DNA of 38,884 nucleotides from the UHGV virus genome UHGV-0130462; one strand, written 5' to 3'. The notes under the pieces are model-generated. The model made no database searches, was not told the DNA's origin, and saw only the letters and a program-made list of their open reading frames with translations. The position numbers and the translations under genes were made by a program. This DNA is from a virus. Shown piece after piece: positions 32,364-35,573 of this stretch (positions are counted from its first letter, which is position 1; every line of letters starts with the position of its first letter).

Positions 32364-32690
32364 TTAATGCGCCTCGGTTGCTCCAACAATCGGGGCGTTT
32401 TCTTTTGTTCTCACCTGAGAAAGTTCACCTATTTGTTTCCATAAAAAGCGGTATTCTTCCTCTGATATTTTCCTCTCTCCTTCCATCACAAAATCGACTA
32501 TCCCTGATGCGACTAATGTCTCGCATATCTCAGGATATTTTTCAGTTCTGCGTAGAATGGTTGAGTCATGAACACCTAATGTTTTAGCGACCACCGACTG
32601 AGTTTTATTTCTCAATGCCTGTAATGCCGAAGCCATCAAGTGATTTGAAATGAATTTATTAAATTGTTTGCGTGTATTTGTGTATTCCAT
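32364..32690 (-). CDS. CII-like transcriptional activator (HTH)
   Basis: Position after cro and HTH segment ALRNKTQSVVAKTLGVHDSTILR. Confidence 0.5.
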   Translation of the reverse strand: MEYTNTRKQFNKFISNHLMASALQALRNKTQSVVAKTLGVHDSTILRRTEKYPEICETLVASGIVDFVMEGERKISEEEYRFLWKQIGELSQVRTKENAPIVGATEAH

Positions 32691-32779
32691 GGTTTAATTT
32701 CCTTATTAAATTACTTCTCGTTAGAGAACAGCAGTAATGATCCGTGGCTCATTCCATATGAGCGGATTGTTGATATGTT

Positions 32780-32813
32780 CCACAATGGCGGAACCTAAAT
32801 TGTGAAAAGAGCG
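32780..32813 (-). promoter_or_regulatory. nutR: boxA (CGCTCTTTT) plus boxB-like hairpin (CCGCCAUUGUGG)
   Basis: Minus strand, just downstream of the cro stop; same two elements recur at nutL. Confidence 0.5.
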
Positions 32814-32819
32814 GGTAAA

Positions 32820-33038
32820 TCAGTGAAAAATGTCTGGGTATAAAACTTCTTTAGATAATCCAGTAGCCATCATAAATTCACGCATTTTTGTTCTTGGTAG
32901 AGAACCACCGTTCTTTTTGATGGCTGAAATTCGCTGAGGTGTTAAGCCAACCTTTTTCGCGAGGTCTTTTTGCTTTCCACCTACTGCACTTACTGCAATA
33001 TCAATTGGTGTTTGCTTTTCCATTAAGTATAACTCCAT
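32820..33038 (-). CDS. cro: Cro-like repressor
   Basis: 72-aa HTH protein (QKDLAKKVGLTPQRISAIK) divergent from cI across the operator region. Confidence 0.6.
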   Translation of the reverse strand: MELYLMEKQTPIDIAVSAVGGKQKDLAKKVGLTPQRISAIKKNGGSLPRTKMREFMMATGLSKEVLYPDIFH

Positions 33039-33044
33039 GTTTAT

Positions 33045-33121
33045 TTATCAACATAATGTTAATCATTATCGAGCCATAAATCAACATAAAGATGATTGGT
33101 TTAAATAAACAAAATGTTTAT
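33045..33121. promoter_or_regulatory. OR: three dyad-symmetric operator sites sharing (T)CAACAT/ATGTT(G) half-sites, with divergent pR/pRM
   Basis: ATCAACATAATGTTAAT (33047-33063), ATCAACATAAAGATGAT (33080-33096), AAACAAAATGTTT (33107-33119); candidate pRM TTGGTT-17-TATCTT. Confidence 0.55.
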
Positions 33122-33141
33122 CTTTGTGTTCGGAGGTTCGC

Positions 33142-33852
33142 ATGGAACTTAGAGATCGAATTAATTACTTGCTAAAGGCTGAAAATCTAAAGCAAAAGGA
33201 CTTAGCTGAGAAACTAAATGCCAGTGCGCAAACAGTTAATAACTGGCTAAAAAGAAACTCAATTAGCAGGGAAGCAGCGCAACAGATTAGTGATATTTTT
33301 GGTTATTCACTTGACTGGTTACTGATTGGCAAAGGTGAGCCGAAAATAAAAAATATTGGACAATCAGAAATACCTGATGAAAACAAATTTATTCCTCTTC
33401 GAGTTTGGGATAGTCTAACACCTCTTGAGGCAGATGAAGTTGAGGTTCCTTTTTTGAAGGATATAGAATTTGCTTGTGGTGATGGATCGTTTACAGACAC
33501 TGATTACAACGGATTTAAACTAAGGTTTTCTAAAGCAACAATGCGGAGGATCGGAGCCAACAGTGACGGAGAAGGTGTGATTTGCTTCCCAGCCAGAGGG
33601 GATAGCATGGAGCCTGTTATATTTAATGGTACTACTGTTGCTGTAAACACTAGAGATAAGAAAATTGTTGATGGTAAAATTTATGCGATAAATCAAGGTG
33701 GGCTAAAAAGAGTGAAAATGCTTCATCAAACCACGCCTAAAACATTAACAATTCGTAGCTTCAATAAAATTGACTACCCAGACGAAGAAGTGCCAATAGA
33801 GGCAATAGAGATCATCGGTAGAGTTTTCTGGTGGTCTGTATTAGACGTCTAA
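33142..33852 (+). CDS. cI: CI-type prophage repressor (HTH plus LexA-like S24 autopeptidase domain)
   Basis: N-terminal HTH (LKQKDLAEKLNASAQTVNNWL) and C-terminal GDSMEP ... LKRVK catalytic Ser/Lys; GGAGG 6 nt upstream of ATG 33142. Confidence 0.9.
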   Translation: MELRDRINYLLKAENLKQKDLAEKLNASAQTVNNWLKRNSISREAAQQISDIFGYSLDWLLIGKGEPKIKNIGQSEIPDENKFIPLRVWDSLTPLEADEVEVPFLKDIEFACGDGSFTDTDYNGFKLRFSKATMRRIGANSDGEGVICFPARGDSMEPVIFNGTTVAVNTRDKKIVDGKIYAINQGGLKRVKMLHQTTPKTLTIRSFNKIDYPDEEVPIEAIEIIGRVFWWSVLDV

Positions 33853-33868
33853 TCAGCACTAACAAATG

Positions 33869-33897
33869 AAGCCACTTAACAAAAGTGGCTTTTTTTA
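33869..33897 (+). terminator. rho-independent terminator after cI
   Basis: AAGCCACUU-AACAA-AAGUGGCUU perfect 9-bp stem followed by U6. Confidence 0.65.
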
Positions 33898-33954
33898 TGC
33901 TCAAAATACACCTCTCGTATATCAAATGTTTATTTTTACAAAATAAATCCCTTT

Positions 33955-34032
33955 TAAAATCAACACAAAATCAACTTTTTCAGAAAATAAATCAACATAG
34001 AGTTGACTTTAAAATCAACATAATGTTTAATT
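33955..34032 (+). promoter_or_regulatory. OL operators and pL promoter
   Basis: Repeated AAATCAAC motifs including dyads TCAAC-ATAGA-GTTGA and ATCAACATAATGTT; TTGACT (34003-34008), 17-nt spacer, TTTAAT (34026-34031). Confidence 0.55.
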
Positions 34033-34072: not shown

Positions 34073-34106
34073 CGCTCTTTTACAAATTAACTCCCGCCAT
34101 TGTGGG
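34073..34106 (+). promoter_or_regulatory. nutL: boxA (CGCTCTTTT) plus boxB-like hairpin (CCCGCCAUUGUGGG)
   Basis: About 40 nt downstream of the pL -10; same elements as nutR. Confidence 0.5.
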
Positions 34107-34345
34107 AAAGTTTCAAAACTCCAAGTGAGTATTGGGATGCGGTTACGCTGAACCAGATGCAAGCAAAACCAATGTCAGACGGTGTGAGTCCGTCGAGTAA
34201 TAACAACGCTGTTGATCATTAACTTAGGAAGGTGAACAGCAAATAAAGTGGTGTTATTGCAGAGGATGCAAGCAAGGCTGACAAGACAGTTCGAGACTGA
34301 TAGCCAATGACCGCATCACCAATACTTACTAACCGAGGGTAAATT

Positions 34346-34618
34346 ATGGCTCAAATTACTTACTTACCGCGCACTGGTAAGACAAATTCAAAGATGCGTC
34401 GTTATATCGCTAGAGGAGAATTAATGGCGCGTAAGGCTTTAGAGGAAGCTAATCGCGGTCGCACTACTGAGGAAATTTGGGATTCAATCATTAAACCAGT
34501 TGATGAAACAGATGTGCTAGCAAGTTTGGTGTTAAGTCTTAAATCATCACCAGATGCACGCAAAACATTAAAACTGAAAAAACAGCCGAGCAGTGAGTTC
34601 GGGGTTACGGCGAGATAA
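34346..34618 (+). CDS. N-like antitermination protein (P22 gp24-like)
   Basis: MAQITY...GKTNSKMRRY arginine-rich N-terminus and ...VTAR C-terminus parallel P22 gp24; first gene after pL/nutL. Confidence 0.6.
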   Translation: MAQITYLPRTGKTNSKMRRYIARGELMARKALEEANRGRTTEEIWDSIIKPVDETDVLASLVLSLKSSPDARKTLKLKKQPSSEFGVTAR

Positions 34619-34961: not shown

Positions 34962-35573
34962 TCATTTATTAAAATATCCAGTGAATTGCCTAACGCATTC
35001 TGAGTAATAATCGGGATTAATTATAAACTCATTGGTATGTCTCATACTCAAATGCTTTGACGAATCATGGAGAATGTCTTTATCCAACAGTGAGTTAATA
35101 ACAGGGTCATTTCTTTTCCCGCCTAGAAATTCCTTTCCAGTGTCAATGAACATGGCTAGGTAATCCTTTTCATCCTCAGAAAGGCTTGAAATAACAAATG
35201 ATATTTTGTGCTGATTATTACGCTTTATTGATTTTAACTTTACGGAATTAATTATACCAAAAGTTAATAAATATATTCTTTTTGTTATATCTGAAAGAAA
35301 GAAGCTAACAGGAATAATAAAAAGAACAGCATTGATATTATTTACCGAGCCAAAAATTGGCTTTGCGTTAAGAAAATCAAAGAATGATTCAGGTAAAAAT
35401 AACCACAAACTGACCAGATATAGCAACCACACCATAGTAAACCTCAGTGAAATTTGGTTTTTCAAATAGGCAATCACTGCCTCAATCCAATTCGGCATGG
35501 TTGATAATCTCTTATTCTGTAGGGGTAAGTGGATTATAGCCGATTTCTCGATGTAGGGGTACACGAGAACCAC
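34962..35573 (-). CDS. AT-rich membrane protein (two N-terminal TM helices plus soluble C-terminal domain), transcribed against the pL operon; superinfection-exclusion or abortive-infection candidate
   Basis: ORF track; hydrophobic segments FTMVWLLYLVSLWLFL and INAVLFIIPVSFFL; convergent with the upstream plus-strand gene, divergent from the next; strongly AT-rich. An alternative GTG start at 35564 has a GAGGTG site upstream. Confidence 0.6.
   Translation of the reverse strand: MVLVYPYIEKSAIIHLPLQNKRLSTMPNWIEAVIAYLKNQISLRFTMVWLLYLVSLWLFLPESFFDFLNAKPIFGSVNNINAVLFIIPVSFFLSDITKRIYLLTFGIINSVKLKSIKRNNQHKISFVISSLSEDEKDYLAMFIDTGKEFLGGKRNDPVINSLLDKDILHDSSKHLSMRHTNEFIINPDYYSECVRQFTGYFNK

Follow-up and report, generated by a model that had tools for sequence, protein, structure and literature searches.

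The window, by which we mean the whole stretch of 38,884 nucleotides analysed here (virus genome UHGV-0130462), contains a lambdoid early region in mirror orientation. Reading along the plus strand, a cro-like gene on the minus strand is followed by a first operator region (OR, 33039-33141), the repressor gene cI on the plus strand, a terminator, and a second operator region that holds the rightward promoter pL (OL/pL, ~33940-34032). The cI gene (33142..33852, plus strand) encodes a protein of 236 aa, with an N-terminal HTH domain (Phage_CI_repr/HTH_3) and a C-terminal S24 self-cleaving peptidase domain; the Pfam matches are 5e-12 for Phage_CI_repr and 4e-17 for Peptidase_S24, and the recognition helix reads AQTVNNWLKR. 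The cro-like gene (32820..33023, minus strand; 67 aa) is the first gene of the pR transcript and a homologue of phi80 gene 30 (Cro). Its product has HTH_3/YdaS Pfam matches, and the same 67-aa product was called independently in other assemblies; the ATG at 33023 is preceded, 9 nt upstream, by GGAG. To the left of cro lies a CII-family gene (32364-32690, minus strand; Pfam Phage_CII, PHROG 191).

An intrinsic terminator follows cI on the plus strand (33868..33899), formed by a 10-bp stem (33868-33892) and then a T-run, and it is kept in relatives with 74-100% CI identity. On its 3' side the DNA is A/T-rich for ~130 bp; then come 310 untranslated nucleotides and a 90-aa ORF. The assembly collection contains the exact CI protein in 138 blocks. 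A PDB sequence search returned no solved relative of the window CI, and an Rfam scan of the whole window returned no match.

In a translated search of annotated phages, the characterised repressors nearest to the window CI were those of phi80 and HK225, with 62-63% identity. The CI of phi80 is 63% identical to that of the window over 232 residues, with the helix PQTVNNWIKR in the place of AQTVNNWLKR, and the phi80 Cro (gp30) is 63% identical over 62 aa (E = 6e-28). The phi80 motif EFACGDG is also kept in the window CI; the common Cys-Gly motif FACGDG is, we presume, the site of RecA-dependent cleavage. For the operators and promoters of phi80 we relied on the GenBank annotations X13065 (O-R and O-L regions) and JX871397 (complete genome). 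The latter record annotates three 19-bp CI operators at OR and three at OL, the distal one of 20 bp, together with the hexamers of pR, pRM and pL, as well as nutL and N. Full-text literature searches found nothing on phi80 operator sequences; a study by Ogawa et al. 1988 is said to form part of the experimental basis for the annotations. Below, phi80 positions are those of our locus L152.

The sites on either side of cI are built on one repeat unit, a 17-bp imperfect dyad of the form ATCAAC-N5-GTTGAT, with three copies at OR and two at OL. A repeat finder gave four 17-bp members (at 33047, 33080, 33105 and 34014), and the member at 33991 was added by scoring against ATCAAC-N5-GTTGAT. An earlier note on this DNA had described a shared TCAACAT/ATGTTGA dyad, present at least three times at OR and three to four times at OL. 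The left half of that description is borne out, since TCAACAT occurs on the plus strand at 33048, 33081, 33992 and 34015. The exact ATGTTGA, however, is absent from the region, and the right halves are degenerate across the sites (GTTAAT, GATGAT, GTTTAT, GTTGAC and GTTTAA); that is, each site consists of one good left half and one degenerate right half. The count of three at OR also stands. At OL there are two dyads, the third site being made of direct half-sites and the fourth finding no support.

Within OR, the site OR1 (33047..33063; ATCAACATAATGTTAAT) matches the repeat unit at 11 of 12 positions and covers the -10 hexamer of pR. OR2 (33080..33096; ATCAACATAAAGATGAT), also with 11/12, lies over the -35 of pR and directly adjoins that of pRM, and OR3 (33105..33121; ATAAACAAAATGTTTAT), with 10/12, overlaps the pRM -10. 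OR3 lacks TCAACAT and is a perfect 7-3-7 palindrome. The three sites align to the phi80 CI operators at L152 2495-2513, 2528-2546 and 2552-2570, respectively, and, like the OL dyads below, they carry no strand assignment. The spacing of 33 bp between OR1 and OR2 is kept in all relatives compared for OR.

The promoters of OR were placed by homology. For pR (33056..33084, minus strand), the hexamers annotated in phi80 (-35 at L152 2528-2533, -10 at 2505-2510) correspond to TTGATT (33084..33079) and TAACAT (33061..33056), 17 bp apart. The candidate pRM (33096..33124, plus strand) has weak hexamers, TTGGTT (33096-101) and TATCTT (33119-24), again separated by 17 bp, at the counterparts of the phi80 -35 (L152 2544-2549) and -10 (2567-2572); the window has one base more between OR2 and OR3, with a spacing of 25 bp against 24 in phi80. 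From this position pRM would give a very short leader, in which GGAGG at 33133-37 would precede the cI ATG. A generic promoter scan, which requires A at position 2 of the -10 hexamer and at least 9/12 matches, called none of pL, pR and pRM, and placement by homology was used instead.

At OL, the dyad OL2 (33991..34007; ATCAACATAGAGTTGAC; 11/12) contains the pL -35 in its right half, and OL1 (34014..34030; ATCAACATAATGTTTAA; 10/12) covers the pL spacer and the -10, which lies in its right half; the corresponding phi80 operators are at L152 4645-4663 and 4668-4686. The promoter itself (34003..34031, plus strand) reads TTGACT (34003-08), 17 bp, TTTAAT (34026-31), exactly as the earlier note had it, overlapping both operators, and the exact pattern occurs once in the window. 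Each hexamer has 5/6 matches; the generic scan missed pL because its -10 has T at position 2, where A is usually conserved. In phi80 the homologous hexamers are TTGACC (-35, L152 4658-63) and TTTAAT (-10, 4681-86), also 17 bp apart and likewise overlapped by OL2 and OL1. The pL transcript probably starts near A34038, within a conserved CATCGAA. The whole block formed by OL2, OL1 and pL, with its GTTTAAT and the CATCGAA that follows, is kept in more than 30 distinct relatives, and GTTGAC...GTTTAAT is present in every relative where pL was found. A possible fourth OL site near 33922 (ATATCAAATGTTTAT) was rejected: only CATGTTTATTT is kept in the closest relatives, and nothing of it at 74-77% identity.

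Downstream of pL, on the plus strand, lies a candidate nutL (34073-34107), composed of a boxA-like CGCTCTTTTACAA (34073-85) and a hairpin UCCCGC-CAUU-GUGGGA (34092-34107). A candidate nutR lies on the minus strand between cro and cII (32813-32777), with CGCTCTTTTCACAA (32813..32800) and the hairpin GUUCCGC-CAUU-GUGGAAC (32794..32777). What separates the two candidate hairpins is one compensatory change, from a C-G to a U-A pair. Beside the nutR hairpin, in the gap between cro and cII, there is a dyad-like match of 10/12 at 32758-32774 (ATGAGCGGATTGTTGAT), which is not found at that score in the closest relatives (L072-L074) and is probably due to chance.

The 90-aa ORF (34346-34618, plus strand) is the first gene after pL and nutL, and the N-terminus of its product is basic (KMRRYIARGELMARKA). 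Neither Pfam nor PHROG gave a match for this product, which shows no similarity to phi80 N; at the DNA level the gene shares 95% identity with a hypothetical one in Proteus phage Pm34. The product may be an antiterminator of the N type, from a family not yet classified. Further along the pL operon region, on the opposite strand, we noted a homologue of SieB (superinfection exclusion B) at 34962-35573 (minus strand; Pfam 4e-13). The genes at the cII and N positions belong to other families than those of phi80: the window CII is of the lambda family, whereas the CII of phi80 is larger. Lambda-type CII sites of the form TTGC-N6-TTGC were not found near cro and cII, and thus no pRE-type establishment promoter was located.

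When the switch is compared with that of phi80 as a whole, all six operators and the promoters pR, pRM and pL align one to one with sites in the window. In the immunity regions of both phi80 and HK225 there are three OR operators in the same order, with the same 33-bp spacing between OR1 and OR2 and with the pR and pRM hexamers at the same places, and direct ATCAAC repeats lie at the distal end of OL. The proposal that CI has its operators here, at OR and at OL, and that the OL sites overlap pL, is thus upheld at the level of sequence by a position-for-position match to the phi80 annotations. There are differences as well. Several phi80 sites have ATCCAC where the window has ATCAAC or ATAAAC, and the distal repeats number two good copies 11 bp apart in the window but three, at 12 bp, in phi80. 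Moreover, phi80 has a gene, 40A, between cI and OL. The window has no gene there, and for this reason the distance between OL and OR is only ~0.9 kb, as against ~2.1 kb in phi80. The recognition helices and half-sites are nearly the same in the two phages, and homoimmunity with phi80 is possible.

The arrangement also resembles that of phage lambda. In both, a tripartite OR separates the divergent genes cI and cro; pseudo-symmetric operators of 17 bp lie across pR, pRM and pL; CI has a domain that is, in the window, predicted to be a self-cleaving S24 domain; and a second operator cluster, downstream of cI, is found at pL, with nut-like sites beyond it. The lambda operator sequence, TATCACCGCCAGTGGTA, is unrelated to the operators of the window. 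Lambda further differs in its OR1-OR2 spacing (24 bp, against 33 bp in the window) and in its leaderless cI mRNA, where the window would have a short leader with a Shine-Dalgarno sequence, and the distal OL element of the window is, unlike in lambda, not a dyad. With its divergent cI and cro, tripartite OR, pL operators and predicted SOS-cleavable repressor, the region has the features of the general lambdoid CI/Cro switch.

The earlier note had pointed to P22-like immunity groups as the relevant comparison. Operators of the P22 type follow the consensus TNAAG-N4-CTTNA, and no match to this consensus was found anywhere in the window. The likeness to P22 extends to the virion module and to the overall lambdoid layout of the early region, but not to the operators or to the c2-type repressor. 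To judge from these comparisons, the window does not belong to the P22 immC specificity group; its immunity module is of the phi80 type, and phi80 is the right group for comparison.

In the window as a whole, there are nine dyads with at least 10/12 matches, against 2.7 +/- 1.6 in 200 dinucleotide shuffles of the 38.9 kb, and five of the nine, including all three matches of 11/12, fall in the two ~100-bp regions that flank cI (OR and OL). The 7-mer TCAACAT by itself is not enriched (14 occurrences against 8.9 +/- 2.8 expected; 8 of 100 shuffles reach 14). Because the dyad motif was derived from the same sites, we rely on independent comparative evidence, namely conservation and covariation.

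A CI protein search of genomes and viral contigs gave 150 loci. In relatives from Providencia and Morganella at 74-77% CI identity, the flanks and spacers have diverged and the sites are retained. For example, the centre of OR1 varies among relatives (ATA, ATC, GTG, ATG, ACC), and both of its halves are constant. We quantified this pattern over the OR footprint of 24 distinct sequences, in an alignment in whose anchoring OR1 played no part: the OR1 half-sites retain 1.90 bits per position, as compared with 1.39 for the OR1 centre, 0.95 for the spacer between OR1 and OR2, and 0.72 for the left flank. The conservation of the OR1 half-sites therefore defines a conserved core ATCAAC-N5-GTTGAT, usually with A on its outer sides and with A or T at positions 7 and 11; this core contains the TCAACAT noted earlier.

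The motif also follows the recognition helix of the repressor. At least two dyads with at least 10/12 matches occur within 120 bp upstream of cI in 62 of the 65 loci where QTV[N/H]NW is the helix near the N-terminus of CI, and no such dyads are found upstream of cI in 86 of the 87 loci with other helices. Many of the 65 loci are near-identical phi80-like prophages, so that the effective sample is ~24-35 distinct sequences; even at a few dozen effective loci, the contrast between the two sets of sequences is complete. Certain CI homologues from Xenorhabdus (L004, L006, L013 and L115-L120) keep a QTVNNW helix without ATCAAC dyads upstream. The layout of these loci is another one, since either CI is extended at its N-terminus by a long segment or a gene in the same orientation lies upstream, and they were ruled out as a counter-example to the divergent switch. 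The covariation supports the claim in the earlier note that the half-site defines the immunity specificity of the phage, with one amendment: this specificity is not private to the phage, but common to phi80, HK225 and many enterobacterial prophages.

The distal OL element ('OL3', 33947..33976, plus strand) requires separate treatment. It contains the direct repeat ATCAAC at 33959-64 and 33970-75, 11 bp apart, and a degenerate ATCCCT at 33947-52. If the segment 33959-75 (ATCAACACAAAATCAAC) is read as an operator, its right half matches GTTGAT at only 2/6 positions; it is not a dyad, and so a model in which a repressor dimer binds a dyad leaves this element unaccounted for. The phi80 counterpart, an annotated CI operator of 20 bp (L152 4601-4620), is a pair of direct ATCAAC repeats 12 bp apart. 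Relative to that pair, the window has ATCCCT, a decayed form, in place of the first repeat; it retains the second intact (33959) and has an extra copy at 33970. Tandem direct half-sites are conserved across the phi80-type family, and their copy number and spacing drift between clades. We regard the distal element as real and family-specific.

It might be argued that CI has its conventional operators only in the five dyads, two at OL and three at OR, and that the distal element (33947-33976) is either the site of some other factor or a set of weak half-sites that do no more than aid higher-order CI assembly or looping. This reading draws on the poor right half (2/6 matches to GTTGAT), on the drift between clades of copy number (2-3) and spacing (11, 12, 13, 19 or 21 bp) around a half-site that is itself kept, and on the decay of the first copy to ATCCCT in the window. 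Yet the distal half-sites share both the sequence ATCAAC and the 5' flank AAAT with the dyad operators; within the family they occur only next to OL; and the homologous 20 bp are annotated as a CI operator in the phi80 record. On balance, we find this division of the sites unlikely, though it deserves to be kept in mind. Another proposal is that the tandem ATCAAC half-sites upstream of OL2 form a functional non-dyad element for CI binding, to which we would assign a rather low probability. Here, single subunits of CI dimers or tetramers would dock on the tandem half-sites and nucleate either a higher-order complex or a loop of ~0.9 kb between OL and OR. If this were true, CI would dock on non-dyad DNA in a way that is not known from repressors of the lambda type.

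A different possibility is that the ATCAAC repeats do not belong to the phage repressor at all, but serve host proteins or replication, as sites for DnaA, IHF or an iteron-binding protein. The motifs are A/T-rich and bear a superficial likeness to the DnaA box and the IHF core: the TTATCAACA at OR1 is one mismatch from the DnaA box, TTATCCACA, and ATCAA resembles the IHF core WATCAA. The TTR element of an IHF site is nevertheless absent at the required distance, and in phi80 the origin binding sites of gp15, an O-like initiator, are annotated inside the O-like gene and not at OR or OL. The repeats of the window sit exactly on promoter hexamers on either side of cI, as in phi80. Furthermore, sites for a host factor would not covary with the CI helix, and the motif is missing from 86 of the 87 loci in the same host groups where CI has another helix. 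We consider such an origin of the repeats very improbable. That chance alone put these repeats into A/T-rich intergenic DNA can hardly be credited: although TCAACAT alone shows no significant enrichment in the window and a pL-like pattern with one mismatch is no rarer than expected by chance, the best dyads are all clustered in two 100-bp regions, their half-sites are kept where spacers have diverged at 63-77% protein identity, and the motif covaries with the helix.

With these alternatives weighed, we conclude that the region very probably represents the immC immunity switch of a temperate phage, organised as in phi80. In this switch, CI (HTH plus S24), made from pRM, would bind as dimers to the 17-bp imperfect dyads ATCAAC-N5-GTTGAT. 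Dimers at OR1, on the pR -10, and at OR2, on the pR -35, would occlude the leftward lytic promoter pR. Since OR2 abuts the pRM -35, it could serve both to repress pR and to stimulate pRM, and binding to OR3, which overlaps the pRM -10, would provide negative autoregulation. On the other side of cI, the pL -35 lies in OL2 and the spacer and -10 are covered by OL1, so that bound CI would shut off the pL transcript, which is expected to read rightward through the nutL-like site into the early genes. During lytic growth Cro, the homologue of phi80 gp30, would be expected on the same sites. RecA would stimulate CI to cleave itself through its S24 domain, which would end repression and induce the prophage. 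The analysis establishes the sites, their geometry relative to the promoter hexamers, their conservation, their covariation with the CI helix and their homology to phi80; from the last two we infer that CI occupies the window operators. We likewise suppose the occupancy by Cro, the order in which the sites fill, the activation of pRM, cooperativity over the unusual 33-bp spacing between OR1 and OR2, and looping between OL and OR.

The phage that carries this switch differs from phi80 in host and virion. The left 22 kb of the window (1-22416) form a virion module, with genes for portal, terminase, ejection proteins and a head-binding protein, that shares 93% identity with two P22-like podoviruses of Proteus, vB_PmiP_Brookers and vB_BPM-V3, whereas phi80 is an E. 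coli siphovirus. Neither Brookers nor BPM-V3 has an immunity region in common with the window. Given a P22-like virion, no P22 operator pattern, and a phi80-like CI, the window thus combines a P22-like virion module with a phi80-type immunity cassette. The cassette, from cro through OR, cI and OL to nutL, is identical in six assemblies (L154-L159) whose flanking genes differ. At its right edge the sequences diverge abruptly after ...GAGTATTGGGAT (~34140), and they diverge also to the left of cro; the position ~34140 is a mosaic breakpoint that bounds the immunity cassette.

The switch is a close copy of the lysis/lysogeny switch already mapped in phi80, and the finding is therefore correct but ordinary: the known working of such switches is unchanged by it. 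What it provides is a confident, coordinate-level annotation of the switch (operators, pR, pRM and pL) for a common Proteus prophage. It also shows that the phi80-type immunity cassette moves as a unit between an E. coli siphovirus and a P22-like Proteus podovirus, a movement that predicts possible cross-immunity across such phages.
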